Source: a virus | Taxonomy: Duplodnaviria; Heunggongvirae; Uroviricota; Caudoviricetes | DNA length: 64,000 nt | Reading direction: 5' to 3' (one strand) | Virus record (IMG/VR): IMGVR_UViG_3300028887_000066 | Coordinates: 243,550-307,549 of that record | The notes under the pieces: generated by a model | Told to the model about the DNA's origin: nothing | Databases searched by the model: none | What the model saw: only the letters and a program-made list of their open reading frames with translations | Program-made: the position numbers and the translations under genes | Part shown: piece by piece, positions 9,444 through 56,054 of the stretch | How the letters are laid out: the number at the start of each line of letters is the position of its first letter | Position numbering within the stretch: position 1 is the stretch's first letter

Positions 9444-9490
9444 TTGTCTCTTGTTTTGACATCGCAAAGATAGGATTTTATTTTCACATG

Positions 9491-9522
9491 AACAAAAAAA
9501 CATTCACTTTTTCAAGTGAATG
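9491..9522 (-). terminator. Rho-independent terminator closing the leftward tRNA transcription unit
   Basis: 9-bp perfect hairpin cattcactt/aagtgaatg followed (minus sense) by TTTTTTTG. Confidence 0.7.
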
Positions 9523-9534
9523 CTATGATATTAG

Positions 9535-9616
9535 ACTCCGTAGTTGGATTTGAACCAACGTGTGCAACGCAAATGGTTTTGCAGACCATCCCTATCGACC
9601 CCTCAGGCATACGGAG
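9535..9616 (-). tRNA. tRNA, type II-like (13-nt variable arm), apparent anticodon GCA (Cys)
   Basis: Manual fold: acceptor CTCCGTA/TACGGAG, anticodon stem ATGGT/ACCAT with loop CTGCAAA, variable arm TTGCGTTGCACAC, T-arm GTTGG-TTCAAAT-CCAAC. Confidence 0.55.
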
Positions 9617-10035
9617 GTAAAAATTCTAAAACATTACGTTTCATTCGGCGAAACCGTATAACGCTTGTTTTTAATGAACAAGTGATGAAACTTATCCGAC
9701 GTATCGGAAAGGACAAACCATTTGTACGTTTTCCATCAGCCGTAACGCTTTAGGAGGATTTCCTGGTAATCTTGCTCGGTTTCATTAAGCATCCTCGGGC
9801 CCAACTACATTCCCTATTCCACCTTTACCGTCTACACCGTGGTCAAATGGAAAAAACCACGATATGCTTCTCTCTTAACGTCTTTTCTAGGATAGACCTG
9901 AGTTTTTCGAACCGCTCCTCCTGCATCTGTCCTGATATGTTTGACAGCACCCATATAAAACTTCGGAGGAGGCAAACTATATAAATATACGCACTCCCTA
10001 GAACACCTACACTGATGTTGTGTAGCCCTATCGTG

Positions 10036-10107
10036 CGGCCTATGCAGGGATCGAACCCGCGACGTTTCCTTTTAGGGAGGACTGCTCTGCCACTGAGCTA
10101 ATAGACC
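10036..10107 (-). tRNA. candidate amber suppressor tRNA (anticodon CUA)
   Basis: Manual fold: acceptor GGTCTAT/ATAGGCC, D-arm GCTC-AGTGGCA-GAGC, anticodon stem GTCCT/AGGAA with loop CCCTAAA (positions 34-36 = CTA, A37), T-arm GCGGG-TTCGATC-CCTGC. C33 instead of U33 is atypical. Confidence 0.5.
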
Positions 10108-10147
10108 TTTCAATTAGGGAGCATTGTATCTCCCCGATTGTTTTTGC

Positions 10148-10185
10148 ATTGCAAAGATAAGGCATTTTATTGGAATGGCCAAATT
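10148..10185 (-). promoter_or_regulatory. Bacteroidetes-type promoter (TTTGGCCAT..20 nt..TATCTTTG) reading leftward into the suppressor tRNA
   Basis: caaagata (10151-10158) and tggccaaa (10176-10183) on plus = -7 and -33 on the minus strand. Confidence 0.65.
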
Positions 10186-10204
10186 TCTTTGCAAAAATGT
10201 TCAT

Positions 10205-10531
10205 TCAAAGAATTTCGACTACTTTTCCGTAGATGTTATTCCGACTTATTACCCCATTGGCGTGACCGTGATTGTTGCCGATCAAATACCTGTCACCAGG
10301 TTTTACCGACCATATCAAATGAAGATAATAGTGTCCGTTCACCTTACATAGTACAATATCGCGTTTCTTTAATTCAGTAGCATCATTCACGGGAATACAA
10401 ATTACAGGCTGCTTTGATTTCAGAATAGGCAACATACTATTACCTATACCAGTGATTTTAGCTACTTTCCCCTGTCTTAATGCTTCAGCGGAATACTTAT
10501 TCTCAAACCCTTCATATTCAACATTCCACAT
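10205..10531 (-). CDS. S24-family (LexA/UmuD-like) serine peptidase domain protein, no DNA-binding domain
   Basis: GNSMLP (Ser nucleophile motif) and a downstream Lys (LCKVNG); 108 aa standalone catalytic domain. Confidence 0.6.
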   Translation of the reverse strand: MWNVEYEGFENKYSAEALRQGKVAKITGIGNSMLPILKSKQPVICIPVNDATELKKRDIVLCKVNGHYYLHLIWSVKPGDRYLIGNNHGHANGVISRNNIYGKVVEIL

Positions 10532-11192
10532 AATCTAAGGTTTTAATCAAGTGCCACAATGACATTATACTTTCAACGTAGTTTTTCTTTTGTGTTTCCA
10601 TACTGTATGTATCACCCGTACCACCGTGTGTAGAGCCAAAATTGAATTTTATCTCCTCAGGCTTTCCGTAATCTGGATTTTTCGGATTTTCATTCTCATT
10701 ATGCAAGAATTCACGATACTCATTCTTAGTGCAGGTTTTATAGGCGTAACAATACTCATTATGACTTAAAAGATACAGTGTGTGTTCCGACACTTGCTTG
10801 TAGATGTCTTTTTTGTCCCTGTTTTTTCTGTCATAACAGTAGATGGATATAGGCATATCGTTATTTTCTTCATAACTTTGATATGTTCCGAAACGACCAT
10901 TACGCTCTTTTAGCACTTTCTGAAATGTGTCCCTTTTTCTTACAACAAAGTCGTCATCACTATAATTTAGAACATTCTTAAATGGCTCTAATTCTGAATA
11001 AAAAGTATTTGAGTACCCTCTGTTCTTCAGCATTTTTTCGCACTTATTAACCTGTTCTGTGATGTACTTCAATGCTTCATCCTCACTGAGGTTGTGCTTT
11101 ATACAGTAATAAACTACATGTGTGTGGTGATATACGTCCCACTTTCTCTCGGTCATCCAATTTTTCAGGAAAATATAACTATTGTTTTTCAT
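10518..11192 (-). CDS. hypothetical protein (224 aa)
   Basis: ORF. Confidence 0.6.
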   Translation of the reverse strand: MKNNSYIFLKNWMTERKWDVYHHTHVVYYCIKHNLSEDEALKYITEQVNKCEKMLKNRGYSNTFYSELEPFKNVLNYSDDDFVVRKRDTFQKVLKERNGRFGTYQSYEENNDMPISIYCYDRKNRDKKDIYKQVSEHTLYLLSHNEYCYAYKTCTKNEYREFLHNENENPKNPDYGKPEEIKFNFGSTHGGTGDTYSMETQKKNYVESIMSLWHLIKTLDYVEC

Positions 11193-11421
11193 AATTTTAA
11201 TCGTATTTGTAAAAAGTAATTATTGTTTTTAATGTGTGATCAATTTTTAACTGAAAAATCAATCGAAAAAAGCAAAATCCCATTTCAAAATACGATTATC
11301 GGATAACCACGGATTTTAGTAACCTACCATTTCTGTCTTTTCATAAATTCAGACGTTTTTTAATTAATGATTATTTTCTTTAGAATTAACATTACAAATA
11401 TACAAATCGTTTTGCATATTG

Positions 11422-11493
11422 TAGGCCGCGCAGGGGTCGAACCTGCCATCTTCTGATCCAGAGTCAGACGTGTTACCACTACACCAGCAGCCT
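11422..11493 (-). tRNA. tRNA-Gln (anticodon CUG)
   Basis: Manual fold: acceptor AGGCTGC/GCGGCCT, D-stem GTGT/ACAC, anticodon stem TCTGA/TCAGA, loop CTCTGGA, T-arm GCAGG-TTCGACC-CCTGC. Confidence 0.8.
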
Positions 11494-11503
11494 GTTTATT
11501 GAG

Positions 11504-11577
11504 TAGGGACGAAGAGGGTCAAACTCTTACCTTTTGGTTCAAAGCCAAATGTGCAGAAGTCGCTACACCACATCCCT
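11504..11577 (-). tRNA. tRNA-Gln (anticodon UUG), atypical D-loop
   Basis: Acceptor AGGGATG/CGTCCCT, anticodon stem TTTGG/CCAAA with loop CTTTGAA, T-arm AAGAG-TTTGACC-CTCTT; the D-loop lacks GG. Confidence 0.5.
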
Positions 11578-11719
11578 ATAAAATACTACGGATAAAATAT
11601 ATGACTTACCTCGGCGGGCCGCATACTCGACCACTTCACCACCTACCAGATCTGTCCTCGTTTAGTATGATAAGAGAGTATGGCAACTTATAATCAAATA
11701 TATTGATCAGTAGTATTAG

Positions 11720-11792
11720 TACGCCTAACAGGATTCGAACCCGTATAAAACACTTTAGAAGAGTGTTGCCTAATCCATTCGGCCACAGGCGC
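11720..11792 (-). tRNA. tRNA-Arg (anticodon UCU)
   Basis: Anticodon stem ACACT/AGTGT, loop CTTCTAA, T-arm ACGGG-TTCGAAT-CCTGT, acceptor GCGCCTG/TAGGCGT. Confidence 0.75.
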
Positions 11793-11798
11793 GTTTTG

Positions 11799-11870
11799 TA
11801 CCCCGACCCAGAATCGAACTGGAAACTAAATCTTAGGAGGATTTTGTTATATCCATTTAACTATCAGGGC
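11799..11870 (-). tRNA. tRNA-Arg (anticodon CCU)
   Basis: D-stem GTTA/TAAC, anticodon stem AAATC/GATTT, loop CTCCTAA, T-arm TCCAG-TTCGATT-CTGGG. Confidence 0.7.
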
Positions 11871-11885
11871 TTTAACATTGTTTAG

Positions 11886-11972
11886 TAGCGCGTATGGGAT
11901 TCGAACCCATGAGGGCGTTTTATGCCCACTACATTGAAAGTGTAGCGACCTAGACCACTAGTCCAACGCGCC
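11886..11972 (-). tRNA. tRNA with Glu anticodon UUC but an 18-nt stem-loop variable arm (type II architecture)
   Basis: Acceptor GGCGCGT/ACGCGCT, anticodon stem CTACA/TGTAG with loop CTTTCAA, variable arm TGGGCATAAAACGCCCTC (GGGC/GCCC stem), T-arm ATGGG-TTCGAAT-CCCAT. Confidence 0.55.
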
Positions 11973-11980
11973 ATATATTG

Positions 11981-12054
11981 TAGCGGTAGCGAGGCTCAAA
12001 CTCGCAATCTCCACATTGAGAGTGTGGTGACTTAATCAGTTCGTCTATACCGCC
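11981..12054 (-). tRNA. tRNA-Glu (anticodon CUC)
   Basis: Acceptor GGCGGTA/TACCGCT, anticodon stem CCACA/TGTGG with loop CTCTCAA, T-arm GCGAG-TTTGAGC-CTCGC. Confidence 0.65.
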
Positions 12055-12203: not shown

Positions 12204-12240
12204 CTGCAAATATAAGATTAATTTTTCAATTGGCCAAATA
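12204..12240 (-). promoter_or_regulatory. Bacteroidetes-type promoter (TTTGGCCAA..20 nt..TATATTTG) heading the leftward tRNA operon
   Basis: caaatata 12207-12214 and ttggccaaa 12230-12238; the tRNA array and its terminator (9491-9522) lie downstream. Confidence 0.65.
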
Positions 12241-13316: not shown

Positions 13317-14936
13317 TTATTTTACATATAAATATCTTTTAATTTCCCCTTTTAACGTCTTGGAAAATGGTTTGCCATAAATAATAAAAGACGAAATTTG
13401 CTCATTTACTGGCAATTTACCATTTATTTTTTTCCTTTCATCATCAATAAGACGGCTCATTTCAGATAAATCTTCAAGGGTCTTGAATCTTTTAGCGGAA
13501 GGATAAACAATAGCTTTAAGCCTATTCTCATTTTTGTCAAGATATACAATGGACTCGCTTATAATGCCACTACTGTTAATGATCTCCTCTATTTCTTTGG
13601 GGTTGATGTTTTTCCCGTCATTTTTAATTATGAGATCACTTCTTCCCTCAAGAAATAGATTACCATCCTCGTCAAAATAGCCTACATCGCCTGTTCTCAT
13701 CCATCCATTGTCAAACACCTCATCCGTAGCTTGTTCATTTCCGTAATATCCGAGCATTACATTATCGCCCATCACATATATTTGGTTTCCATCCCTTACC
13801 TCTATCTGCATCCTGGGAGCCGTTTTCCCACAAGAACGAAATATATGTTCGTTTTGATCACTATATGTGATGATAGGTGAGCATTCAGTCATCCCGTATC
13901 CGACTGTAAACGGTATGTGATAGTCAATTAAAGCTCTTTCCACTTCTGCATCCAATTCAGCACCACCTATTATAATTTCATAGAAATTGCCCCCTAAAGC
14001 CGTCTTTATGACACGGCCTATGAGTTTATCCGCCAATGGTTTAAAAAGCCTGTAGAATGGCTTAAAATAAGTTTTATGGATATATTTGAATATATTATCC
14101 CTAATAAGCGTTTCGATTAATAACGGGACGACAATTACTATGCATGGTTTGGTTTTTTTGAATGTGGACAGCATATTTTTTACCGTTAAAGGTTGAGTCA
14201 TGAAATGTACATTTACCCCAAATACAATAGCCCCAAGAAAATCATACATTATACCATACATATGGGCCAACGGTAATAATGAAACTACATTATCTCCAGT
14301 TTTTAACATATGTACCACTTCTAATGCAAACGCTAAATTTGATGATAATGCCCGTGACGGTATCATTACGCCTTTTGGAGAGGACATTGTACCGCTTGTA
14401 TAGTTTATTGAAATTAGCTCGTCAGGTGAATAGTGGTGTATTTTATCACAGAATTCTTCAGCGGTACACCCCTCAAGCTTCATACTACCTATTACATATG
14501 GGAGTTTATTTTCACCTGAAAATAGGAGGCTGAAATCATCCAATGAGTAAACGGCTGACAGTTTTCCGAAACACTCAAGACTATTCTGCATTTCATCCCA
14601 AATCGCTTCTGATATGAATAGGACTTTTGAATCCGAATGCTCTATAAGATGGGTAATCTTATCTGTCGTAAATTCATGCAGAATAGGCACGGCAACAGTT
14701 CCATATGTAGTAGTAGCGAGATATGTTATCCCCCAATTTATTGAGTTCATTCCACAAATAGCCACTTTATCACCCTTTTTAATGTTCAGGCAATCAAACG
14801 CAAACCATAATTGCCGTATACCATAAGCTACATCAGAATAATTAAAAGAACGAATGGGATAATCCGTCATAGATGGAATATCCCAAAACTTTTTGAATGA
14901 TTCTGCTATGTATTGTGAATAGGTAAGGTTATTCAT
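13317..14936 (-). CDS. AMP-dependent synthetase/ligase (long-chain acyl-CoA synthetase-like)
   Basis: AMP-binding motif YTSGTMSSPKGV, GYGMTE, and hinge TGDVGYFDEDGNLFLEGRSDLIIKNDG. Confidence 0.85.
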   Translation of the reverse strand: MNNLTYSQYIAESFKKFWDIPSMTDYPIRSFNYSDVAYGIRQLWFAFDCLNIKKGDKVAICGMNSINWGITYLATTTYGTVAVPILHEFTTDKITHLIEHSDSKVLFISEAIWDEMQNSLECFGKLSAVYSLDDFSLLFSGENKLPYVIGSMKLEGCTAEEFCDKIHHYSPDELISINYTSGTMSSPKGVMIPSRALSSNLAFALEVVHMLKTGDNVVSLLPLAHMYGIMYDFLGAIVFGVNVHFMTQPLTVKNMLSTFKKTKPCIVIVVPLLIETLIRDNIFKYIHKTYFKPFYRLFKPLADKLIGRVIKTALGGNFYEIIIGGAELDAEVERALIDYHIPFTVGYGMTECSPIITYSDQNEHIFRSCGKTAPRMQIEVRDGNQIYVMGDNVMLGYYGNEQATDEVFDNGWMRTGDVGYFDEDGNLFLEGRSDLIIKNDGKNINPKEIEEIINSSGIISESIVYLDKNENRLKAIVYPSAKRFKTLEDLSEMSRLIDDERKKINGKLPVNEQISSFIIYGKPFSKTLKGEIKRYLYVK

Positions 14937-14942
14937 TTTAAT

Positions 14943-15158
14943 TTATCCAATTCGGTCAAGCATATCATTATAATTGAACCATATGGCAAAAACCACCGCC
15001 ACTATCATTACTACGTCATTTACCCCAGGGATAAACATTACGACAGTAGACAGCTTTGCAAAGCTTTCCATTTCGTGTCGTTTCAAATATGGTAACAAAC
15101 CCCTCAATACGACAAATGGGGCTAAATATAATAGACTACAAATTAAAAAGATACCCAT
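14943..15158 (-). CDS. small membrane protein; possibly the frameshifted C-terminal tail of the upstream FNT gene
   Basis: 71-aa hydrophobic ORF overlapping the end of the FNT ORF by 16 nt in another frame. Confidence 0.3.
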   Translation of the reverse strand: MGIFLICSLLYLAPFVVLRGLLPYLKRHEMESFAKLSTVVMFIPGVNDVVMIVAVVFAIWFNYNDMLDRIG

Positions 15159-15742
15159 TTCAAACCAAGTTTGTTAATCATTAAGCTTCCAATCGCGTTA
15201 CCAAATACCCACATAATTAGCTGCGGGCAGAAAAAATCACCGTTCATAGCCATATATCCATAGTTTGCTATACAGTGATCAAAGCCGCATAATATAAAAC
15301 ACATTACGGGAAGGATAATGGTTATTGGATGCTGTTTCCATTTATACCCGTCTACGGCAATATACATCATTGCGCCGCACCCAATAGACCTTATTAGTGC
15401 TTGATACCATAATTCGGAATATTTAGCGGCTAATATACTACTTGTTGTTAATGTAATTCCTGAGAAATTGGCGAATACCCAGCAAATAACCCCAATACCA
15501 ATAAAATTAAGTAAAAGCATTGGTAATAATTGGAATAATGGGTATGTCCAATTCATTTTCATGTATCCGACTTTCCCCGTATACAAGTTAGCACCCTGTA
15601 TTACGACGGTAAGAAGACCTAAACTAAACAAGAATGAGCCTAATATATGGCTTTCAACGGCAACAAATGCTATGCACCCGAATCCTATAAGCACTCCAGC
15701 CAATAGGGACTTCAATATGAATTCTAAAATCTTCTTTGGCAT
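15143..15742 (-). CDS. formate/nitrite transporter (FNT) family channel (short, 199 aa)
   Basis: Multi-TM protein with the FNT signature FILCGFDHCIANYGYMA (compare GFEHSIANM). Confidence 0.65.
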   Translation of the reverse strand: MPKKILEFILKSLLAGVLIGFGCIAFVAVESHILGSFLFSLGLLTVVIQGANLYTGKVGYMKMNWTYPLFQLLPMLLLNFIGIGVICWVFANFSGITLTTSSILAAKYSELWYQALIRSIGCGAMMYIAVDGYKWKQHPITIILPVMCFILCGFDHCIANYGYMAMNGDFFCPQLIMWVFGNAIGSLMINKLGLKWVSF

Positions 15743-15743
15743 T

Positions 15744-16358
15744 TTACTTAACTTTTACTCTTGCCCTGAAATCTTCTATACAAGCATCGATATTATAATG
15801 TACGTCATTGTAATTTCCGACACCATATTTCCTCGCATACTTATTATCTTCTTCCTCATTGTTTCCAAGGGCTTCCTTACGCTGTCTGTCAAATGTGTTT
15901 CCCTTTGTCGGGATATAGCCTCTGAATTTGCTTCCATCCCAATAGACCATGAAAATTACGGGTATTTCCCAATCACCGCCCGCACTAACAATAACGTATG
16001 GCATACCATTATAATCTCTCAAATCGCCAATGTAATCCACATTTTCTGGATCCCATTTTACTTTGGAAATATCATTGAACAAGTCTTTAAGGCTATTCTT
16101 ATGCTCTTTCTTCCAACACTGATTTCTAATGATATTTACAATATCCTTCCATTTAATCTTGCCATTTGCCTCATATTCAACCTCAATGGCGACTTTCTCA
16201 ACATGTTCAGTAAATTCAGTCGGGGTTATTTTAACCCCTGTCCTTCCGCTGCTTGGGAGTTCTACATCCATGTTAACATATTTGTTTTTATTTTCTTTCA
16301 GAACACGCTTAATGGACTCTCTCACTAAGCCTCTCAATTCAGATTCCCTTATCTTCAT
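15744..16358 (-). CDS. hypothetical protein with the shared N-terminal leader (MKIRESELRGLVRESIKRVLKE)
   Basis: ORF; leader motif. Confidence 0.6.
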   Translation of the reverse strand: MKIRESELRGLVRESIKRVLKENKNKYVNMDVELPSSGRTGVKITPTEFTEHVEKVAIEVEYEANGKIKWKDIVNIIRNQCWKKEHKNSLKDLFNDISKVKWDPENVDYIGDLRDYNGMPYVIVSAGGDWEIPVIFMVYWDGSKFRGYIPTKGNTFDRQRKEALGNNEEEDNKYARKYGVGNYNDVHYNIDACIEDFRARVKVK

Positions 16359-17116
16359 TACTCAGACATTTCTTTTTTGCTTTTCTTATACTTCTCCCTT
16401 GGTTTTGGACAAAGTTTTACCAATTTACTGTGCCACTCATTCCAAACGGGCTTGTATTTAACCTTAAAATCATCCCATTTAAAGCCATTTTCAAGGTCTG
16501 TAAAAATATCAGTATATAATGGACGTGCAACATAAAAATCTGTAATAAGCCCGTTTTCGGCAATTTGGCAGGCATACATAAGAAGCCTTATTGAATGAAA
16601 TAGGCTCTTCGCACCACATCTCATGTCCAAATCCTTCTTCACTGTCATTTTTTTCTTCGCTTTTGCAAATGAATTGTTTGACACGCTTCCAAACGACTCA
16701 CGTAGCAACCATTTATTTAACTTGAAGTATTGCCTGTAATCAGCTATTGTCTTTTTATTGTCATCCGTATTATACAACACCTCGTTAGTAAGAAGAATGG
16801 CCTCCAATGCAAAAGGCGTATGCTCATTTATCATATCGATGAAATCACTTTCTCTCACTACTTGCACGTCCGTCTTTGGTACATCCATCATTTCAATGGT
16901 AAATTGATGCAATCGAATATCACATTTTTCATTATCAAATACGCCATCCTGATCAATAAAGTCGGTATCATCAGCTACAACGATAGCCATATCACGATCC
17001 GATTCCTTTGTCATTGTGCCATAAACGGCGGAACCGCGTGAAAACATCGTAAGTCTTTCATTATCTACAAATAACTTTGCTACGCAATCCGCTACATCAT
17101 TACAATTTACTGTCAT
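16358..17116 (-). CDS. nucleotidyltransferase-fold (Pol-beta superfamily) protein
   Basis: GSAVYGTMTKESDRDMAIVV = G-S-x3-G-x5-S-D-x-D; exact subfamily (MNT, OAS/CD-NTase-like) undetermined. Confidence 0.45.
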   Translation of the reverse strand: MTVNCNDVADCVAKLFVDNERLTMFSRGSAVYGTMTKESDRDMAIVVADDTDFIDQDGVFDNEKCDIRLHQFTIEMMDVPKTDVQVVRESDFIDMINEHTPFALEAILLTNEVLYNTDDNKKTIADYRQYFKLNKWLLRESFGSVSNNSFAKAKKKMTVKKDLDMRCGAKSLFHSIRLLMYACQIAENGLITDFYVARPLYTDIFTDLENGFKWDDFKVKYKPVWNEWHSKLVKLCPKPREKYKKSKKEMSE

Positions 17117-21956: not shown

Positions 21957-22469
21957 CTATGCTATAAATTTTTTTACCTCGTCCGAAAGGGTCTTTCCAT
22001 CAACATTATTGAGCTTTCCCTTTACATATTTGATACAGAGTCCCATATGTTGTTTTGGCATCGCATTTGTAAACCCGTTCTCATTCATATAGTTTCCAAT
22101 TTCAAGACGCATTTCGTCAAGAGTCGCAGCCTTTGGTAAGAATCCCTGAATTATTGCAATCTCTTTTTCCTCTTTTTCAGCAAGTTCAGGACGGTTTCCT
22201 GTTTTATATGCAATTACAGACTGTTGCCTCTCTTTGATCATCTTATTAAGTATGGAAAGCTTATCTTCATCCGAAATCTCTTTCTTACCATCAATTTCTA
22301 CAAGTTTCTTAACGCCTTGCTCTGATGTTCTGAACTCAATGAATTTAGCCTTAATGAGCTTGTAAACAGCCAATTCCTCTTTCTTTCCACCGACATCAAC
22401 CGTTTTGTCATTTAATGCTTGACTTATTTCCTTTGTCTTTCCTAAAATAAGTTTATCTATATCAATCAT
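21957..22469 (-). CDS. GatB/YqeY domain protein
   Basis: LAEKEEKEIAIIQGFLPKAATLDEMRLEI .. MGLCIKYVKGKLNNVDGKTLSDEVKKFI matches the YqeY family layout. Confidence 0.7.
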   Translation of the reverse strand: MIDIDKLILGKTKEISQALNDKTVDVGGKKEELAVYKLIKAKFIEFRTSEQGVKKLVEIDGKKEISDEDKLSILNKMIKERQQSVIAYKTGNRPELAEKEEKEIAIIQGFLPKAATLDEMRLEIGNYMNENGFTNAMPKQHMGLCIKYVKGKLNNVDGKTLSDEVKKFIA

Positions 22470-23248: not shown

Positions 23249-24359
23249 TAATCGGTATTTCGTATGTAGAAATGTTATCCTCTACAATATAATTCTCATT
23301 GATGCTTGTTACAACATGCGGGTTAGCAAGATAACTGTCAATAGGACGCTTGATTTTTTTATAGTAAAGGAAATTCTCAGGATGCATAACATCCATATAT
23401 GTGCGGTATACCATAATACCAATATCTTCTGCCGTGCGAGTCTCCTTATATTTTTCTTGCCTATCAAAACCGTAGTCATCAATATTGAATTTCTTTTCCA
23501 ATTTGAGTGCGAGTTCAACCCGTTGTTCTGGCGTATCAATCGGAACACCATTTTCCACTTCACATTTAACGGCCTTTGCTATATCCTCATAATAGACATT
23601 ATGACTATAGTCACGCACCCAAGAATCAAAATATTCAATATATTGTTCCTTACCGTCGAAATTAACCTTACACCATTTATGTGCCTTTGAGTCAAAACAG
23701 TTAGCCAGATCTTCCCAACAAAAATATGATTCGAAATCACTTGCATAATAATAACTGTTTTTGTGTGATTCCTCGCTGCTCCATTCACTTATGAATTTAA
23801 TTTCGCCATTTTCAAGAACAGGCTCTATATTTGTAAAACCACGAAGAGTCTTTATGTTAGTAACATTCCTGTCTTTCAAAAAACGCATCAGTAAATCAAT
23901 GGGGTCGAACAAATCCTGTAGATGCAAATCACAATGGAAATTCATATGCCCCCAATTTAAACGGTCAAATATTTCCCGCCTAATATCTTTGGCGATAAAA
24001 TCTTTTCTGTTCTGACTTAATCGGTTATAACCGTGTGTTGCGATTTCGCCTGAATGCATTGCAGCATATGTATGACGGCCAAGCCCATAATGGAATGACA
24101 ACCATATAAGATCATCTACCTTAGATGTCGGCAATACTTTTAATGGGGCAGACTTCTTACGACGTTTCTTCAAAAACTCCCTGAACTCAGCGACTAATTG
24201 ATGATATTCCTCAGAGTCAAAATCTACATTGAAATATTCGTCTTCTCGTTCATTTTTCAACCCTATTGCATATCGATACGACATCCATACTAAATCTTCC
24301 GCATACATGTCGTCAAAATCATTCTTTTTCTTCTTAGTCATTATTTTCTGTTTTTTCAA
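23238..24359 (-). CDS. hypothetical protein (373 aa)
   Basis: Long ORF. Confidence 0.6.
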   Translation of the reverse strand: MKKQKIMTKKKKNDFDDMYAEDLVWMSYRYAIGLKNEREDEYFNVDFDSEEYHQLVAEFREFLKKRRKKSAPLKVLPTSKVDDLIWLSFHYGLGRHTYAAMHSGEIATHGYNRLSQNRKDFIAKDIRREIFDRLNWGHMNFHCDLHLQDLFDPIDLLMRFLKDRNVTNIKTLRGFTNIEPVLENGEIKFISEWSSEESHKNSYYYASDFESYFCWEDLANCFDSKAHKWCKVNFDGKEQYIEYFDSWVRDYSHNVYYEDIAKAVKCEVENGVPIDTPEQRVELALKLEKKFNIDDYGFDRQEKYKETRTAEDIGIMVYRTYMDVMHPENFLYYKKIKRPIDSYLANPHVVTSINENYIVEDNISTYEIPINEG

Positions 24360-24822
24360 CGATGACCAATGCGTGTCTTATAATCTCCCCGTTCATCTTA
24401 TAACCCACTTTATATATGTTAGAAATGCAATTATCGGAAACATCGCCACTGTTTGAGGTGGATACGGCATTATGTATGTCAGGATTGAATTCATCGCCGA
24501 TAGAGCCATATGCTTCGACTCCACATTCTTTCAGTACATTAAATAATTTACTGTAAATCAACTTTATACCTTCACCGTCTGACCCCATTTTATGTGCCAT
24601 TTCACAATCATCGATGACAGTAATTAAAGATAAGATTATTTCTTTTCCTGCCGTATTCCGTATGGTTTCAATTTCCTTCGCCTTTCTCTTCTTGTAGTTA
24701 TCAAATTCGGCTAAAAGCCTAACATACATATCTTGGTAGTCAGGCTGCTTAACCTCTTCATCATTAACTATAACAGGCTGCTCATTTTCAACAGGCATGT
24801 TATTCAACATTGTCTTTAGCAT
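24334..24822 (-). CDS. grpE: GrpE nucleotide-exchange factor
   Basis: LLAEFDNYKKRKAKE .. DEFNPDIHNAV .. GYKMNGEIIRHALVIV align with GrpE's AEFENYRKR and FDP..HEAV..GY..R..RPA.V motifs. Confidence 0.8.
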   Translation of the reverse strand: MLKTMLNNMPVENEQPVIVNDEEVKQPDYQDMYVRLLAEFDNYKKRKAKEIETIRNTAGKEIILSLITVIDDCEMAHKMGSDGEGIKLIYSKLFNVLKECGVEAYGSIGDEFNPDIHNAVSTSNSGDVSDNCISNIYKVGYKMNGEIIRHALVIVEKTENND

Positions 24823-26172: not shown

Positions 26173-26514
26173 CTATTCACGCTGATTATAATTCTTTTCT
26201 ACGTATTCCCACAATTTTTCATCTGTTGAAAGGTCTATGGGTGTACCGTCCTTTTCCCAAGCAAAATATTCCTTTTCTTCATTTCCGCTTTTCTTGCTCT
26301 TCTCCAACAGACGAGGAGCATCATACAACGCCCACGAAATCCAATCCCATCCATCTTCTCCGTAGGCTTCTGTAAATGCCAATGCCTGCAACGCCCAATA
26401 TGACTTGCACAATTCAGTGTCAATAATGTCAATTCCGAGCTTTCTCAATGTTTCAATATCATTATCCGTTTTGCGGATAGTATCAAGCACCTCTTTGAAT
26501 TTCTCTAATTTCAT
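26173..26514 (-). CDS. hypothetical protein (113 aa)
   Basis: ORF. Confidence 0.5.
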   Translation of the reverse strand: MKLEKFKEVLDTIRKTDNDIETLRKLGIDIIDTELCKSYWALQALAFTEAYGEDGWDWISWALYDAPRLLEKSKKSGNEEKEYFAWEKDGTPIDLSTDEKLWEYVEKNYNQRE

Positions 26515-27026
26515 GCCTTAATATATTTAGTATCTACAAACTTAGTGAGCCAAACTCCATTGTTACTCAAATAAAACTTGTTTCCGTCGTTATGCATCGT
26601 TTTTGCGTCAATTACCAATACAATTGGCTTACCGTGCCTCTTTCCTACATTAATGGCAGTATCCGCATCAGCGGACAAATGTACATGCAGCCTTGTTCCG
26701 CTGTTTATTCCGCTTTTCATAATGGAATCCAAAAAACGTGTAGCCGTACCGTGATATAATGTATCAGGAGGTGTCATTTCCTTCAATTCCACATTAACTT
26801 CCACACTATGCCCTTGTCTTGCACGGATATATTTTCTGTCTTCAGAATACTCAAATCGTTTTTTGTTGTTAGTTTCAACGATTTCATCAAGTATTTCAGG
26901 TGTATAGCCGTGATTTCTTAACAAATCATCAACCTCACGCCAACCATGCTCGTCAAATTTATACTCTTTATCGTGTCTGAGAAGAAAAGCTAATTCCTTA
27001 CCTTTTTCAATTACTATATTTTTCAT
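26511..27026 (-). CDS. kptA: RNA 2'-phosphotransferase (Tpt1/KptA family)
   Basis: LRHDKEYKFDEHGW..KKRFEYS..IRARQGHSVEV..LYHGTATRFLDSI..RLHVHLSADADTAINVGKRHGKPIVLVIDA..GVWLT match Tpt1 conserved blocks. Confidence 0.85.
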   Translation of the reverse strand: MKNIVIEKGKELAFLLRHDKEYKFDEHGWREVDDLLRNHGYTPEILDEIVETNNKKRFEYSEDRKYIRARQGHSVEVNVELKEMTPPDTLYHGTATRFLDSIMKSGINSGTRLHVHLSADADTAINVGKRHGKPIVLVIDAKTMHNDGNKFYLSNNGVWLTKFVDTKYIKA

Positions 27027-37013: not shown

Positions 37014-37847
37014 TTATATTCGATCGGGTATAAATTTGACAATCTTACCGTTTTCTATTGTAAATAATTGTTTACAGTCAAGACAGGCAAAATACTTATC
37101 GATTATTGGCTCCGCAAGTTTATCCGTATACCCATTTGCATATATTTCTTTTTCCATTTCGTATGAAATACGCTGTGAATGCCCGAAAACTTGATACCAC
37201 CCTCTGAATTCATAACTATAGGGTGTTAGCTCATCCCAATGCGCCCAAATAAACGAGCCATACGGATAACGCCCGCCGCGTGATCTCGATACTGTACCAA
37301 GTGGGGCGATAATACTGTCAATATTATCTGACAATGCCTTATTTAGTGTATCGGCAATATCAGGAATATTAGCAGGCTTTTTGAATATTTTTGGGAGTTT
37401 GTCGTACTTTTGCCGTGTATTAACGTATTCTATCCATTTTTTCAATAAACAACTGTGAGAAAATAAGAATTTCTGCCCATCCTGTTCAGTGTACCATATT
37501 AGACTAAACTTCGACATGTTTTCATGAAACATTGCCCTGATGTCGTCAAGATGTTTATAATCAGTACGACAAGCAGGCATATCGTCGCTTATATAGGGGC
37601 CGAAATCGTGATTTCCTAACAATAATAGCACATTATCAGGAAATTTGTCCTTAAAATCAAGTATTTCTTCAAAATTGGCTATAGCATCTTCTTTTGTTAT
37701 ACCTTCCCAAGGATATGGATCCAAATAATCCCCAAGAAAAACCACAAACGCATTAGAATGTTCTTTAACATATTCTACCACAGGTTTCCAAAATGTGCGG
37801 CCATGTACATCAGGGACTATAATTATCTTTCTTTCTTTACTGTTCAT
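37014..37847 (-). CDS. calcineurin-like metallophosphoesterase (PPP/ApaH-lambda phosphatase-like)
   Basis: VPDVHG, FLGDYLD and GNHD motifs. Confidence 0.85.
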   Translation of the reverse strand: MNSKERKIIIVPDVHGRTFWKPVVEYVKEHSNAFVVFLGDYLDPYPWEGITKEDAIANFEEILDFKDKFPDNVLLLLGNHDFGPYISDDMPACRTDYKHLDDIRAMFHENMSKFSLIWYTEQDGQKFLFSHSCLLKKWIEYVNTRQKYDKLPKIFKKPANIPDIADTLNKALSDNIDSIIAPLGTVSRSRGGRYPYGSFIWAHWDELTPYSYEFRGWYQVFGHSQRISYEMEKEIYANGYTDKLAEPIIDKYFACLDCKQLFTIENGKIVKFIPDRI

Positions 37848-42650: not shown

Positions 42651-44006
42651 TCACTCAATGGTTATACCTATCTTTTTCACGTACTCAGCAACAAGCTTTT
42701 TCATGAACTGTTCACCATTGAATCCCGCTTCAAGGAACTTGAGCAAGTATGGGCTGTATCCTGACATAAAGACGTTACCATCCTTATCCACCTCAGGACA
42801 GGTCTTATTCCTTGAATTCAGATTCCACCAAACAATTTTCGTCTTAAAGCCGTTTTGTTGGAAGATGCGCATTGTCTCGTCCTTTGACTGTTTTGAACCA
42901 CAGTCAAATTCCATGTCACTGAGGACGACCAACCACTCAGGGGCGTTTTTAGCATCAAGACCCTTCAACAGACGCATTACAGCCGCAAAATCTGTATTAC
43001 TGCAATCACCCGTGTACATCGAGGCAATTTCGCGCTCATATTGGTTCTTGCAATGGCTAAGATTCTGACGATGCGTCCTTACACCCCATCCATAAGAAGT
43101 AACCTCATTTTCGACACCAAGCTCAAGCAATTGAGGATTGGACGAGAAAGAGACCACCTTGTTAGGTGCATATGTAGAACACTTTGAAAGGTAATGCCCG
43201 ATAGCAATAGCCTTTCCATAGGAATCATTACCATCCTGCATAGAGCCTGACGAGTCGATAACAGGAATCCAACTTCCACTGATTTTCTCTATCTTGTCGA
43301 AGAAAAGATCTGGATCAATCTTAGTACGATTCTTATAGATGTCATACACGGTCGTAGTGGAAATCTTCATTTCCTTCTTGCCATCCTTGACATCGGCAAG
43401 GTACTTCTCAAAACGGGCCTTTGTATCCTCCTTTTTGAGGAAACGCTGATAATATTTGATCAACGCAAGCGAAGGAACATGCTCGAACTCAATTTCCTCT
43501 GTGTTCTTACGGGATAATTTGTTTTCCACGGTATCACACTTGATGAACTTGCCATACTGCTGCTTATTCATACCCCAATACTTTGCAATCTCACGGGCGA
43601 CCATCAGATTCTTTGAGGAATAACGTGGCATCCACTTCTTAGCAAGCTCATTACCCTTCTTGATTTCATCCTTCAAGTAATCAAGTGCCTCATTAAAAGC
43701 TGCCGTACCATGAAACATAGTCCAAACATCATCAAAACGTCCTGCCAACACCATATCAGTAATGGAGACATGCGCCTGCTTCATCAATTCACGTCCAAGG
43801 TCACGCTTTCCAAGACCGTATCGTGGGTCACGGACAAACATTGCGAATGCCTTTTCAAAAGCTGACGTACCTATACGTACCTCATCAACATGCTTCTGAA
43901 AATACTCTGTCATAAACAGCAAGTCCAACAGTGGATTCAATGTAGACTTGTAGGAAACATCACCGTTTTCTGTCAACTTCTGGTTGAAAATTTCTTCTAA
44001 ATTCAT
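42651..44006 (-). CDS. von Willebrand factor A (MIDAS) domain protein, DUF2828-like
   Basis: MIDAS motif VIDSSGSM (DxSxS) around residue 250. Confidence 0.65.
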   Translation of the reverse strand: MNLEEIFNQKLTENGDVSYKSTLNPLLDLLFMTEYFQKHVDEVRIGTSAFEKAFAMFVRDPRYGLGKRDLGRELMKQAHVSITDMVLAGRFDDVWTMFHGTAAFNEALDYLKDEIKKGNELAKKWMPRYSSKNLMVAREIAKYWGMNKQQYGKFIKCDTVENKLSRKNTEEIEFEHVPSLALIKYYQRFLKKEDTKARFEKYLADVKDGKKEMKISTTTVYDIYKNRTKIDPDLFFDKIEKISGSWIPVIDSSGSMQDGNDSYGKAIAIGHYLSKCSTYAPNKVVSFSSNPQLLELGVENEVTSYGWGVRTHRQNLSHCKNQYEREIASMYTGDCSNTDFAAVMRLLKGLDAKNAPEWLVVLSDMEFDCGSKQSKDETMRIFQQNGFKTKIVWWNLNSRNKTCPEVDKDGNVFMSGYSPYLLKFLEAGFNGEQFMKKLVAEYVKKIGITIE

Positions 44007-44853: not shown

Positions 44854-45651
44854 TTATCTTTTTGGTATAATGTTCAATTGATCAAAATATTCGTTAGTAA
44901 ACAATTCAGCATAATGGGCTTTCCATATGCTCCTTTCATATGAAACAGGTTCACCTTTTATTGTCGTGTTAAATGTTTCTGTTTCCTTGTATACGATACG
45001 CCCGTACTTCTTTCCATTATCCAACGCATTCCAATCGACATCCTTCTCATTGTTCAACAATTCAATTTGTTCATCGGCTTTCAAACCCACAAGTCTTTTA
45101 TGCGGAAGATATGTCTGTGCAGTCTGTTGTTTTGAATTACGCAGACAATCGTTCTGTCGATAAAGCAACCACGCAAATACGTCATTATATGTCGGTACTG
45201 TCCATACTTTGCAATCAAATTGTACAATAGGTTCAGATGCTATGATTTGTTTCAAATCATTATTTGAACATGGGACATTACATACTCTAAGTATGTTTAA
45301 TTGATTAAACTTAGCCGTTGCCAATGACGCTATTATCGACTGCATCTTACATAGTCTGAAACCGAAAAATGAATCACTTTCAGGTGTGTCAAAATCGGTA
45401 ATTACAAGACTAATCTCATCAGACTGTACATACGCTGTCTTACAGCCCTGTATTTCCTTACAAAGATATTCAGCCGTCTCATTCATCATACGGATAAATT
45501 CATCGTCAAACGGACGTTCAAAACGCTTTTTGACAAGTTTTGAAAATGAGCGTCCATCAATATGTGCCAGTACATACGAATTTGGCGTAAGTCTATAATC
45601 ATAGATGGATTTATAATACTCCATCCTTTCCTTTAGATTATTAAATTGCAT
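44854..45651 (-). CDS. Thg1-like protein (tRNA-His guanylyltransferase family, 3'-5' nucleotide addition)
   Basis: YVLAHIDGRSFSKLVKKRFERPFDDEFIRMM .. AYVQSDEISLV .. LATAKFN match Thg1 catalytic blocks (RIDGRxF, SDE); start refined to Met at 45651. Confidence 0.8.
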   Translation of the reverse strand: MQFNNLKERMEYYKSIYDYRLTPNSYVLAHIDGRSFSKLVKKRFERPFDDEFIRMMNETAEYLCKEIQGCKTAYVQSDEISLVITDFDTPESDSFFGFRLCKMQSIIASLATAKFNQLNILRVCNVPCSNNDLKQIIASEPIVQFDCKVWTVPTYNDVFAWLLYRQNDCLRNSKQQTAQTYLPHKRLVGLKADEQIELLNNEKDVDWNALDNGKKYGRIVYKETETFNTTIKGEPVSYERSIWKAHYAELFTNEYFDQLNIIPKR

Positions 45652-45753
45652 ATGTTTTTTAATTAATACATTGCAAATATACGGCAAAAAAATAGAACCA
45701 CCAAAATATTTCATTGATGGTTCTATCCATGATTATGAAAAAAGTAAAAAACA

Positions 45754-47628
45754 TTAAACCTCTTCTGCTTTCTGAGTACCCCCTGTAAATCCTGAGAAAA
45801 TATCATTCAGGGGATTTCCATCACCTTGTGGATTACTTCCTTGATACATCTTCTGGGTAATCGGATACCAAGTTTGCTCAAGCTCTTTCTGACAAGTTTC
45901 TACAAGACTGACATCTTTTGCCTCAATCGCCTTCTTTAAAGCCTCAATCTTTGGTGTAAGAGTGTTCTTATCATCATCGGTAAGTTTATCACCCATTTCC
46001 TCCATAGATTTTTCAATAGCAAAAATCAAACCGTCAGCATTGTTTAGTTTATCGGCGTTTTCCTTCTTTTTTCTGTCAGCCTCCGCATTTGCCTCTGCTT
46101 CAGCTTTCATACGCTCGATTTCTTCATCGGTAATACTGCTTTTTGATTCAATAGTGATATGCTGTTCCTTATTAGTCGCTTTATCAACAGCAGTTACACT
46201 CAAAACCCCATTAACATCCATATCAAAAGTGACTTCAATCTGAGGCACACCTTTTCTTGCGGGAGCAATCCCATCAAGATTAAAAATACCTATTGTTTTG
46301 TTGTCTACGGCCATTGGACGATTGCCTTGTAGTACCTTTATTTGTACACCTGGCTGATTATCCTGTGCTGTACTGAAAGTTTGTGATTTTTTGGTAGGTA
46401 TCGTTGTATTAGCCTCAATGATGTTCGTCATAACACCCCCTATTGTCTCGATGCCTAAATTCAATGGTGTCACATCAAGTAACAAAACATCCTTATTATC
46501 ACCAGCGATAATTGAACCTTGAACCGCAGCACCAAGAGCTACAATCTCATCAGGATTGACATTTTTAATAAGCTGAACCCCAAATTCCTTCGTGAGCATT
46601 TCCTGAACATAAGGAATTCGTGTAGAACCACCTACGAGAATAATACCAGTAAGTTCATTCGCCATAATGCCTGAATTTGATAAAGCTGTTTTACCACAAC
46701 CTATAACCTTTTTGATTTCATTTGAAATGAGTTTTTCAAATTTGGCACGTGTAACACTGATATTCAAATGCTGTGGAACCCCGTCTTTAGCGGTAATGTA
46801 TGGAATATTAATATCTGTTGTGGTACTATTTGAAAGCTCCATTTTAGCTTTTTCAGCGGCCTCCACGACACGTGTCATTGCCATAGGATCAACAGAAAGG
46901 TCGATACCTGTATCACTTTTAAATGAATTAACAATGTCGTCACACAAAAGCTTAGTAAGGTCTGAACCTCCACAATACACATCACCATACGAACTCAATA
47001 TCTCAACAACACCATCAGAAATGTCGGCAATGGAGAAATCCAATGTTGAGCCACCGTAATCGGCAACCATATATTTACCACCTTTAGCCATATCAATGCC
47101 AGAAGCAAGAATTGCCGCTGTAGGTTCTGCGACGATACGACGTACATTTAGTCCAGCAATTTGACCAGCTTTAATGGTGGCTTCACGTGCTTCATTATCG
47201 AACATAGCAGGTACGGTAATAACAGCCTCTGTAACCTCCTCCCCAAGATAATCTTCTGCTGTCTTCTTTAATTTTTGAAGTATCATTGCGGAAATTTCTT
47301 CAGGGGAATACTCCCTATCACCAATTGCAATTCTTGGGTAGCCATTAACGTTTTTCACATCATACTCAATATGAGCGAAATTGTCTTTTACATTCTCATA
47401 AGTACCACCCATGAAACGTTTAATAAGAACTACTGTATTCTTGGGGTTGGTGATTGCTTGACGTTGTGCCGAAGCCCCGACCTTGCGTGTTCCGTCTTTA
47501 TCAAAAAATACTACAGACGGAGTTGTCCTATTTCCTTCATCATTGACAATAATCACTGGGCTATTACCCTCCATTACAGAGACTTCGCTAAGGGTACTAC
47601 CCAAATCAATTCCAATAATCTTTCCCAT
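45754..47628 (-). CDS. dnaK: Hsp70 chaperone DnaK
   Basis: [18 protein letters not shown] .. [11 protein letters not shown] .. full-length 624 aa with a C-terminal EEV-like tail. Confidence 0.95.
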
Positions 47629-51308: not shown

Positions 51309-52010
51309 TTAACTTTTTTTCATATCGAATATGATAGGACTATAAGCAACTTCGTATTTTTCATTAAGTATCGATGCATTAGCTATTTTAATTCCTTCAT
51401 ATTCTGTTATTTTTTTAAGAGGCGAAGAATGAATATGCCCAAAAAACACGTATTTTGGTTTCCTGTCCAACACGTATTTAGCAAGTACCTCATTTCCAAA
51501 ATTCCTACCATTTACGTCGCCTTCAGTAGCCATTCCACCATTTAAAATATCAGGGGCATCGTGTGTAACAAGAATGTCAAGCCCATATGGTATGAAATCA
51601 TAGTATCTCTCCAAATTATCCCGTGTAAACGGCCATCTTGGTAAAGGTTTACAATATGGGCAACCAAAAATCTTATATACTACGCCATCATTCTTGAAAT
51701 CAAATTCCTCATTATCAAGATATATGAGACGGTTATCCTTAATATTTGAAAGCCATTCGTTTTTCTGTTTGTTGCTAATTCCTTCCAAGAAAAACGAATG
51801 ATTTCCCGCTATCATTACTACCTTAGATTCAGAATTCCTATATGGCAATTTATTTATCCAATCAGAGAATGTGGTATTTAGCCATTCTTTATGAAACTGT
51901 CTGCTCTGATTCCATACAGGTTCGCCATCACCACACATGATCAAAAGATCAAATTCTTCTTTAATTGGTATCAAATTTCCATGTAAATCACTTATTACAA
52001 TAACTTTCAT
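51309..52010 (-). CDS. calcineurin-like metallophosphoesterase
   Basis: VISDLHGN, MCGDGE, AGNHSF, GHIH motifs. Confidence 0.85.
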   Translation of the reverse strand: MKVIVISDLHGNLIPIKEEFDLLIMCGDGEPVWNQSRQFHKEWLNTTFSDWINKLPYRNSESKVVMIAGNHSFFLEGISNKQKNEWLSNIKDNRLIYLDNEEFDFKNDGVVYKIFGCPYCKPLPRWPFTRDNLERYYDFIPYGLDILVTHDAPDILNGGMATEGDVNGRNFGNEVLAKYVLDRKPKYVFFGHIHSSPLKKITEYEGIKIANASILNEKYEVAYSPIIFDMKKS

Positions 52011-52349: not shown

Positions 52350-52387
52350 ATGCAAAGATAAGACAATTATTTCAAACGGCCAAATCA
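52350..52387 (-). promoter_or_regulatory. Bacteroidetes-type promoter (TTTGGCCGT..20 nt..TATCTTTG) for 52036-52329
   Basis: caaagata 52353-52360 and cggccaaa 52377-52384. Confidence 0.6.
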
Positions 52388-54945: not shown

Positions 54946-54951
54946 AAATTA

Positions 54952-55785: not shown

Positions 55786-55982
55786 TATTTATTTCTATTG
55801 ATTAAAATTGTTTCGCCACAATTAGGGCAGTTTATCGAATCTTTGACAACCGTTTCTCTTGCTATTCTGTTAACAAGTTCTTGATCATGTTCATTTATTA
55901 ACGACGACCATAATACAACGGTTATAAATGCCATTACTAAAACTAATAGGATACCTCCTATAACCTGAAACACTGTTTTCAT
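55785..55982 (-). CDS. small membrane protein with CxxC zinc-ribbon
   Basis: TM helix + CPNCGE. Confidence 0.4.
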   Translation of the reverse strand: MKTVFQVIGGILLVLVMAFITVVLWSSLINEHDQELVNRIARETVVKDSINCPNCGETILINRNK

Positions 55983-56054
55983 ATTTTGGAAAATTTGAGG
56001 GAGATGCTTACAATACCCTGAAAAACACCTCCCTCTTTATTATTTATGGAAAAC

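Follow-up and report, generated by a model that had tools for sequence, protein, structure and literature searches.

By textbook rules, bacteria restrict the long variable arm to the transfer RNAs (tRNAs) for leucine (Leu), serine (Ser), tyrosine (Tyr) and selenocysteine (Sec). The bacterial selC* tRNA for cysteine (tRNA-Cys), which combines a long variable arm with U73 and the anticodon GCA, is charged with Cys and takes part in translation (Mukai et al. 2017, PMC5389517; reviewed in PMC7609411), and a long arm is therefore compatible with Cys identity. The allo-tRNAs, which originate from metagenomes, have long variable arms and many non-Ser and non-Leu anticodons (PMC5389517), and the nev-tRNAs of nematodes display a class II shape with class I anticodons for glycine (Gly) and isoleucine (Ile) (Hamashima et al. 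2012, PMC3333845; PMC4300185). Phage tRNAs have been reported to evade tRNA-targeting defences through changes in the anticodon loop (van den Berg et al. 2023, PMC10264068), a theme to which Azam et al. (2024) and the PARIS system, both as cited within PMC13056530, also belong. Here, we analyzed an array of eight tRNA genes in a stretch of 64,000 nucleotides (nt) from a virus of the class Caudoviricetes (positions 243,550 to 307,549 of the IMG/VR virus record IMGVR_UViG_3300028887_000066); this whole stretch is referred to as the window. Two of the eight tRNAs carry a long variable arm together with the anticodons UUC, for glutamate (Glu), and GCA, for Cys.

We propose that both long-arm tRNAs work as elongators of the identity that their anticodons indicate, the UUC tRNA for Glu and the GCA tRNA for Cys, with a selected extra variable arm, a reading to which we assign a probability of about 0.68. 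The glutamyl- and cysteinyl-tRNA synthetases of the host (GluRS and CysRS) would charge these tRNAs, which would then read GAA and UGY codons during infection. The stable variable hairpin sits where Leu, Ser and Tyr tRNAs hold their long arm, and it would be an adaptive add-on that involves no switch of identity.

Two long-arm tRNAs in an array of eight

ARAGORN and the Rfam tRNA model RF00005 independently identified eight tRNA genes on the minus strand and reproduced the number, order and coordinates given in an earlier reading of this DNA that was made from the letters alone (hereafter the sequence-only reading). They are a tRNA-Glu(CUC) of normal length (11981-12054), the 87-nt long-arm tRNA-Glu(UUC) (11886-11972), two tRNAs for arginine (Arg) with the anticodons CCU (11799-11870) and UCU (11720-11792), two tRNAs for glutamine (Gln) with the anticodons UUG (11504-11577) and CUG (11422-11493), an amber-suppressor-type tRNA with the anticodon CUA (10036-10107) and the 82-nt long-arm tRNA-Cys(GCA) (9535-9616). 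The RF00005 scores range from 50.9 to 61.1 bits compared to a gathering score of 29, with 58.3 bits for tRNA-Glu(UUC) and 51.7 bits for tRNA-Cys(GCA).

In the covariance-model alignment with RF00005, both long tRNAs span the full model (positions 1-71) without non-standard pairs, and the extra nucleotides are confined to the variable region. Each has an intact acceptor stem of 7 base pairs (bp), a 5-bp anticodon stem with a 7-nt loop and a 5-bp T stem, i.e., the 7/5 configuration, and the 8/4 or 9/3 configuration of acceptor and T stems is absent from both. The variable arm of tRNA-Glu(UUC) consists of 18 nt (U-GGGC-AUAAAAC-GCCC-UC; 11911-11928, minus strand) with a 4-bp stem and a 7-nt loop, and that of tRNA-Cys(GCA) of 13 nt (U-UGC-GUU-GCA-CAC; 9560-9572, minus strand) with a 3-bp stem, 1 unpaired nt on the 5' side and 3 unpaired nt on the 3' side. 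The arm lengths and the clean acceptor, anticodon and T stems described in the sequence-only reading were thus confirmed. That reading had also considered mis-folding and rejection by covariance models; RF00005 accepts both tRNAs, which are bona fide 7/5 cloverleaf tRNAs and not mis-folds. The class-II-like arm on class I anticodons, which it had pointed out, is present in both and unusual.

tRNA-Glu(UUC) has the anticodon loop CUUUCAA. Its body features G1.U72, A73, U8-G9, a D-arm GACU-AGUGGUCUA-GGUC with U13.G22 and a T-arm AUGGG-UUCGAAU-CCCAU. The same features are found in the normal-length phage tRNA-Glu with 4-nt variable loops that were dissected in the fetched loci; the normal-length tRNA-Glu of one of these loci (L054), for instance, has an identical D-arm and the 4-nt variable loop AAGC. 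The tRNA-Glu(CUC) located directly upstream in the window has G1.U72, A73 and a similar anticodon stem in common with its long-arm neighbour. Judged by these elements, the UUC tRNA has a Glu-type body whose variable loop has received a hairpin. The G1.U72 wobble together with A73 is present in both Glu and both Arg tRNAs of the array (4/8; 11720-12054), and in one subgroup of the long-arm tRNA-Glu family described below, 16 of 17 members retain G1.U72.

A family of long-arm phage tRNA-Glu with a covarying variable arm

A metagenome scan that required the Glu D-arm, the anticodon-loop start CTTTCA (anticodon UUC) and a long interval up to the T-loop revealed 43 further loci, mostly inside tRNA arrays of up to 23 genes. 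Anchoring on the D-arm was needed, as a pattern with the exact anticodon stem had 0 viral matches and a looser pattern had 2. Where contig names give a source, which few do, they point to activated sludge and the human gut. The family is defined by the D-arm GACUAG..GGUC, the anticodon UUC and a 15-20-nt variable-arm hairpin with a covarying stem. The tRNA-Glu(UUC) of the window falls within this definition and was aligned with 35 other distinct members, of which the one in locus L081 is its closest relative; its variable stem GGGC/GCCC is in register with the covarying helix of the family.

Among the 36 aligned distinct members, we found 35 distinct variable-region sequences, all of which fold into hairpins of 3-7 bp with a mean energy of -5.24 kcal/mol, compared to -0.66 kcal/mol in shuffles. 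Every position of the stem shows 3-6 pair types, and chimeric combinations of 5' and 3' strands are complementary at 47% of positions only. Two register-consistent family alignments (A3 and A2) were scored by pair counting, and 4 of 5 pairs of the variable helix in A3 and 3 of 5 in A2 are changed on both sides. The whole structure is paired to 98.4% (A3) and 97.3% (A2), compared to 73.9% and 76.0% in shuffles, none of which reached the observed values (0/500), and to 23-51% when slid. Support for the helix of the variable arm equals that for the acceptor and anticodon stems, and the helix is maintained by selection in the Glu family. With a mean of 17 nt, a stem of ~5 bp, mostly one unpaired nt on each side and often a GAAA cap, the geometry of the family arm agrees with that of the tRNA-Ser arms of the same loci, unlike that of Leu or Tyr arms.

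The family extends to cultured phages. Five Klebsiella phage records (Stephanstirmvirinae) carry the long-arm tRNA-Glu, and four of these annotate it as tRNA-Glu. In the 18-kilobase (kb) stretch of Klebsiella phage KP13-26 that was examined, exactly one of 24 annotated tRNAs is a tRNA-Glu, namely the long-arm one. Citrobacter phage Tr1 encodes an 86-nt member (57 bits with RF00005; L102 2985-3070, which corresponds to OR515479.1 104970-105055) that is missing from its GenBank annotation, so that an annotation gap exists in at least one GenBank record; no match to this tRNA was found in 5,426 complete E. coli genomes. As cultured Klebsiella and Citrobacter phages carry the family, its charging, decoding and sensitivity to nucleases lend themselves to direct tests. 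In the uncultured 462-kb phage LR756500.1, the long-arm tRNA-Glu adjoins an 83-nt long-arm tRNA for histidine, tRNA-His(GUG) (L103 2892-2974). Our literature search found no description of canonical 7/5 tRNAs with class I anticodons and long arms in phages, and the long-arm phage tRNA-Glu family is apparently both widespread and undescribed.

The arm might instead be a tolerated, near-neutral insertion at the most permissive site of a tRNA, with the helix kept because an unpaired insert would misfold the molecule. Such an explanation would account for the variable-region hairpins on many other class I isotypes in the same arrays, i.e., those for asparagine (Asn), threonine (Thr), lysine (Lys), methionine, tryptophan, proline, aspartate, Ile and His; 22 of these bystander tRNAs have variable regions of at least 9 nt, and 17 of the 22 form hairpins. 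Examples are an 87-nt tRNA-Lys(UUU) (L054 552-638), a 93-nt tRNA-Thr(AGU) (L047 878-970) and tRNA-Asn(GUU) of 83-85 nt from two cultured phages, Tr1 and KP13-26 (L102 1716-1798; L104 8197-8281), the 85-nt one lying in the KP13-26 stretch mentioned above. Variable regions of 4-6 nt in short phage tRNA-Cys and of 11 nt in the tRNA-Cys of Prevotella megaphage Lak-A1 suggest a continuum, and the long-arm loci come from unrelated phages. If the arm were neutral, however, its loss should be easy, yet the Glu family, which ranges from metagenomic contigs to cultured enterobacterial phages and is so deeply diverged that acceptor stems differ completely, always retains an arm of 15-20 nt with a stem of usually 4-6 bp (3-7 bp overall). 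We thus regard a near-neutral insertion as unlikely. Rfam tRNA matches of 99-118 nt with 39-43 bits were also recorded in other phage arrays (L081 1512-1629; L104 3287-3385; L106 3404-3507); these are tRNA-like genes with still larger insertions.

Constraint and codon meaning in the phage lineage

The window belongs to a metagenomic contig of 355,767 bp (Ga0310696_10000012; JGI sample 3300031993) and has a guanine and cytosine content of 35.9%. Near-identical contigs of 353-356 kb are present in ENA and Logan, which indicates that it derives from a huge phage. The phage Hsp70 is ~70% identical to proteins including a Bacteroidales DnaK, and the 5' half of the tRNA-Cys is 90% identical to tRNA-Cys of Lak-A1; on account of these two similarities, the host likely belongs to the Bacteroidales. 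Among GenBank phages, no close relative of the region was detected, as megablast returned none and distant blastn returned generic tRNA-Arg matches only.

Relatives of the array were retrieved via an embedded open reading frame (ORF) of 224 amino acids (aa). They comprise near-identical strains and one divergent ORF with identical tRNAs, a set that shows constraint and gives no covariation. In the strains L043 and L044 (~97% identical), 3 differences were found over the ~605 nt of the eight tRNAs, compared to 3.4% in the embedded ORF and ~4.7% in intergenic sequence. These are an extra A in the variable loop of the long-arm tRNA-Glu, a T-loop change in tRNA-Arg(UCU) and a change of U33 to C33 in tRNA-Cys, the last in one strain (L044 1780-1861). 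The extra A, at 11922, is the only change in the tRNA-Glu of L043 and leaves the stem untouched. Contig L051 carries a strongly diverged, 213-aa version of the embedded ORF (a homologue of that length, P0002, is 55% identical), and the four tRNAs that it covers (both tRNA-Gln, the CUA suppressor and the long-arm tRNA-Cys) are identical to those of the window. The array tRNAs are under strong purifying selection.

When the phage Hsp70 was compared with 99 homologues (65-72% identity), 16 of 17 GAA positions coincided with conserved Glu and 2 of 2 TGT positions with conserved Cys, and the two codons keep their standard meanings in this protein, the one tested. GAA accounts for ~5% of all codons in the window, AGA and AGG together for 59% of Arg codons, and the array supplies three pairs for NNR codons (Glu, Arg and Gln) of which this AT-rich genome makes heavy use. 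Besides the long-arm tRNA, no reader with the anticodon UUC was seen in the window. Given the frequency of GAA and its standard meaning, charging with an amino acid other than Glu would damage the phage's own proteins.

Identity of the long-arm tRNAs

We compared both tRNAs with the identity sets that Giege and Eriani list for bacteria (PMC9976931). By E. coli rules, tRNA-Glu(UUC) has the strong Glu determinants U34, U35, C36 and A37. The Ser set consists of G73, C72, G2-C71, R4-Y69, C11-G24, a large variable region and G30-C40 (PMC9976931); tRNA-Glu(UUC) has G2-C71, G4-C69 and the large variable region and deviates at the other four of these seven determinants, with A73, U72, A11-U24 and C30-G40. 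The Leu set combines A73 and A20a with tertiary core interactions and a large variable region (PMC9976931), and position 20a of tRNA-Glu(UUC) reads C by our own numbering of the D-loop AGUGGUCUA.

tRNA-Cys(GCA) has C1-G72, U73 and a D-arm CCUGAGGGGUCGAUAGG that resembles Tyr; its anticodon arm AUGGU-CUGCAAA-ACCAU, with the loop CUGCAAA, is of the Cys type. The major determinants for CysRS are U73 and G34-C35-A36 (PMC9976931), both of which are present. G2-C71 and C3-G70 are listed as further Cys acceptor pairs in bacteria (PMC9976931 Table 1), of which C3-G70 is found here. The tRNA departs from the Ser set with U73, G72, U2-A71 and C4-G69, and it shares G34 alone with the bacterial Tyr set (A73, G34 and U35), having U73 and C35 at the other two positions. 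A viral scan that allowed any length of the variable region detected 36 loci, 6 of them with a long-arm tRNA-Cys of 84-93 nt (ARAGORN), and a scan of 185,579 species genomes yielded 3 long-arm Cys matches, all on contigs of 10-40 kb from metagenome-assembled genomes. Across the whole sample, long-arm tRNA-Cys have U73 in 9 of 10 and GCA in 10 of 10 cases. The window tRNA belongs to this group of long-arm phage tRNA-Cys, which keep U73 and GCA and form a looser set than the Glu family.

The ancestry of tRNA-Cys(GCA) is less uniform. Its D-region is 90% identical to phage tRNA-Tyr compared to 80% to the best short tRNA-Cys, the geometry of its variable arm (13 nt, 3 bp, 1 unpaired nt on the 5' and 3 on the 3' side) is of the Tyr type, and its best GenBank phage matches are annotated as tRNA-Tyr. 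U8-G9, the D-arm, G26, a variable region ending in CAC and an identical T-stem are common to it and the tRNA-Tyr of Acinetobacter phage BS46 and Agrobacterium phage Atu_ph07. The Cys-type anticodon arm argues against a Tyr origin, as does the fact that other members of the long-arm Cys family lean towards short tRNA-Cys. Since U35C and A73U alone separate the bacterial Tyr and Cys sets, a completed switch from Tyr to Cys, or a mosaic, appears as plausible as an expansion of the variable loop of a tRNA-Cys. The sequence-only reading had noted that the GCA anticodon is one base from that of Tyr; this closeness is reflected in the putative ancestry of the tRNA, whereas its present determinants and its anticodon arm are those of Cys.

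Several findings weigh against cognate elongators. E. coli GluRS has as major determinants an augmented D-helix with U11-A24, the U13-G22:A46 triple and the absence of nucleotide 47 (PMC9976931). tRNA-Glu(UUC) keeps U13.G22 and violates two of these determinants with A11-U24 and its 18-nt variable region, so that charging by GluRS is not guaranteed. The pair A11-U24 is also found in the normal-length neighbour tRNA-Glu(CUC) and in other phage tRNA-Glu, so that the rules of E. coli might not hold for this host. Two Leu determinants, A73 and the large variable region, are in addition present, the arm geometry is of the Ser type, and mischarging is formally possible. tRNA-Cys(GCA) has C1-G72, and U2-A71 where G2-C71 is expected. 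Finally, a normal-length tRNA-Glu(UUC) coexists on the same strand with the long-arm one in 16 of 23 arrays of at least six tRNAs, a redundancy that hints at a specialized, even non-decoding role.

Identity-switched or mischarging class II tRNAs, in which the arm recruits the synthetase for Ser, Leu or Tyr and GAA or UGY are read otherwise, in order to recode or damage the proteome, would account for long arms on class I anticodons, for the Ser-like arm and two Leu determinants of the Glu tRNA, and for the Tyr-like arm, D-region and GenBank matches of the Cys tRNA, and there are precedents (PMC3333845, PMC5389517). We nevertheless consider mischarging very improbable. The UUC tRNA, which the sequence-only reading thought could be identity-switched, has a Glu body, lacks G73, C72, C11-G24 and G30-C40 of Ser and, by our numbering, apparently A20a of Leu, belongs to a large conserved family and is the sole annotated tRNA-Glu in the KP13-26 stretch; the Cys tRNA lacks both major Tyr determinants, A73 and U35. 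The standard meaning of GAA and TGT in Hsp70 would moreover make misreading an act of self-harm.

A further explanation holds that decoding is not the main task of the long-arm tRNAs. They would instead serve a tRNA-binding protein (a host anticodon nuclease or toxin, say, or a repair enzyme of the phage) as decoy, sponge or dedicated substrate, and the arm would be the handle by which they are recognized. This explanation draws on the coexisting normal-length tRNA-Glu(UUC), on the tRNA repair genes of the window described below, and on C33 in the suppressor and in the tRNA-Cys of one strain, which is odd for efficient decoding. Set against this, acceptor, anticodon and T-arm features are fully conserved, as are the aminoacylation determinants, and the long-arm tRNA is the sole Glu tRNA in the examined KP13-26 array and the sole UUC reader seen in the window. 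No co-occurring protein partner is common to the long-arm loci, which come from unrelated phages. We find a decoy function improbable and continue to favour working elongators of cognate identity.

Organization of the array and its surroundings

The array is split on the minus strand by two protein ORFs (10205-11192), the embedded 224-aa ORF (10518-11192) and a 108-aa ORF (10205-10531) with a weak Peptidase_S24 match. The terminator that the sequence-only reading placed after the array is present: immediately behind tRNA-Cys lies an 11-bp stem with a T run after it (9499-9524, minus strand). The single promoter (12204-12240) and single operon of that reading were not supported: the sigma-70-like match at 12237-12209 is at chance level (10 sites found compared to 10.5 expected), and the array is interrupted by the two ORFs and a 419-nt spacer, with five minus-strand TAT[AC]TTTG motifs in the gaps. 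One of these, TATATTTG, lies upstream of the first tRNA (12207-12214) and is a candidate Bacteroidota-type -7 promoter element; the similar motifs are located at 11695-11702, 11395-11402, 10152-10159 and 9465-9472. We take TAT[AC]TTTG to be the Bacteroides-type -7 element. It is weakly enriched window-wide (100 found compared to 83.6 expected), and in view of this weak enrichment promoters are inferred at these sites. The array probably consists of several transcription units rather than one operon.

The 142-nt gap between tRNA-Arg(UCU) and tRNA-Gln(UUG) (11578-11719) contains a D-arm-like stretch GGUGAAGUGGUCGAG and the TATATTTG motif. Neither ARAGORN nor RF00005 called a tRNA in it, and it may hold a tRNA remnant and an internal promoter. 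The CUA suppressor has G73 and the anticodon loop CCCUAAA, with C33 in place of the near-universal U33 in all contigs examined; it is identical in four other contigs (L043, L044, L050 and L051), and a homologue in L071 (L071 4822) has the same loop. C33 was found in 18 of 588 distinct tRNAs of the sample.

The 419-nt spacer between the CUA suppressor and tRNA-Cys (9617-10035, minus strand) shows 2 differences between the ~97%-identical strains, fewer than any neighbouring feature. We dismissed a structured RNA, as folding of the spacer gave no signal (z = +0.26) and neither Rfam nor blastn returned a match. When TAG is read as sense, one frame is uninterrupted over 100 codons and has three TAGs in frame (ATG near 9954, TGA near 9736), and the spacer could hold a small TAG-recoded gene beside its suppressor, or this frame could be due to chance. 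Recoding of TAG in the window was rejected, since reading TAG as sense fuses no ORFs and TAG ends 15 of 78 ORFs.

Elsewhere in the window, the minus strand encodes a gene set for the repair and upkeep of RNA or tRNA, consisting of a Tpt1/KptA RNA 2'-phosphotransferase (26511-27026), an RNA ligase (53322-54020), a Thg1-family enzyme (3'-5' nucleotidyltransferase; 44854-45714), a YqeY/GatB-tail-like protein (21957-22469), and two metallophosphoesterases and a weak match to Pol-beta-type nucleotidyltransferases (16358-17116, 37014-37847 and 51309-52010). In phage T4, Pnkp and Rnl1 counter PrrC. The presence of Tpt1, the RNA ligase and the Thg1-like enzyme fits a conflict over tRNA integrity, and judged by the T4 example the phage appears to contend with tRNA damage. 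Together with the NNR pairs for Glu, Arg and Gln, these enzymes make the anticodon-nuclease context put forward in the sequence-only reading plausible. No aminoacyl-tRNA synthetase was found with Pfam in 60 of the 62 window ORFs of at least 150 aa; the other two, which overlap (52385-52855 and 52862-53353), were scanned against PHROGs only.

A 451-aa DUF2828/DUF7788 protein (42651-44006, minus strand) matches PHROG 850, "RNA-binding protein", and is 24% identical to the product of the gene directly downstream of a long-arm tRNA-Cys in the unrelated viral contig L020 (2186-3782); it could be a tRNA-binding protein. The phage also encodes its own Hsp70/DnaK and GrpE (45754-47628 and 24334-24822), as well as an acyl-CoA-ligase-like enzyme, a nearby PP-binding protein, a formate/nitrite-transporter-like protein, and ABC transporter and OmpA/NMT1 components (13317-14936, 15143-15742 and 53986-57584).

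Putative function of the arm and comparison with known systems

If the long-arm tRNAs are cognate elongators, the purpose of the arm would most readily, but only tentatively, be sought in the way tRNA-binding proteins see the tRNA, for example in escape from host nucleases or toxins or in discrimination from host tRNA. More specifically, and in our view more doubtfully, the arm might serve a shape-based counter-defence, in which the class II shape hides tRNAs for Glu above all, and for Cys, Asn, Thr, Lys and others, from host nucleases or toxins while synthetases and the ribosome accept them. Such a mechanism, if true, would be a second route of evasion distinct from mutation of the anticodon loop. 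A covariation-supported, class-II-shaped phage Glu family, together with the Cys, Asn, Thr and Lys cases, challenges the generality of the rules for variable arms and of the shortened variable loop as a major determinant for E. coli GluRS, and long-arm tRNAs suggest an unexplored layer of phage-host conflict or of tRNA engineering.

The window resembles defence-evading phage arrays, in which tRNAs replace host tRNAs attacked by immune nucleases, and adds repair enzymes and C33 loop variants. The mechanism of van den Berg et al. alters the anticodon loop, whereas in the window the variable region has gained an entire arm, a change not mentioned in PMC10264068. Bacterial-type class II tRNA-Tyr has A73 and U35; the window tRNA-Cys instead has U73, C35 and a Cys-type anticodon stem (U31:A39). 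The long arm, U73 and GCA of selC* tRNA-Cys recur in the window tRNA-Cys, but selC* tRNAs have an 8/4 configuration with a bulge and a longer anticodon stem, are bacterial and are linked to selB* or cysS*, while the window tRNA is canonical 7/5, phage-encoded and without such neighbours. The allo-tRNAs are like the window tRNAs in their arms and anticodons and differ from them in an 8/4 or 9/3 configuration, Sec-like D-arms and Ser identity elements (G73/U73), in place of 7/5 and cognate Glu or Cys bodies. The nev-tRNAs match the window tRNAs in their class II shape with class I anticodons; they have eukaryotic Leu-type bodies and are charged with Leu, whereas the evidence from the Glu- and Cys-type bodies of the window points to cognate charging. 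selC* tRNA-Cys, allo-tRNAs and nev-tRNAs are the closest known relatives of the two long-arm tRNAs, and all of them differ in defining features.

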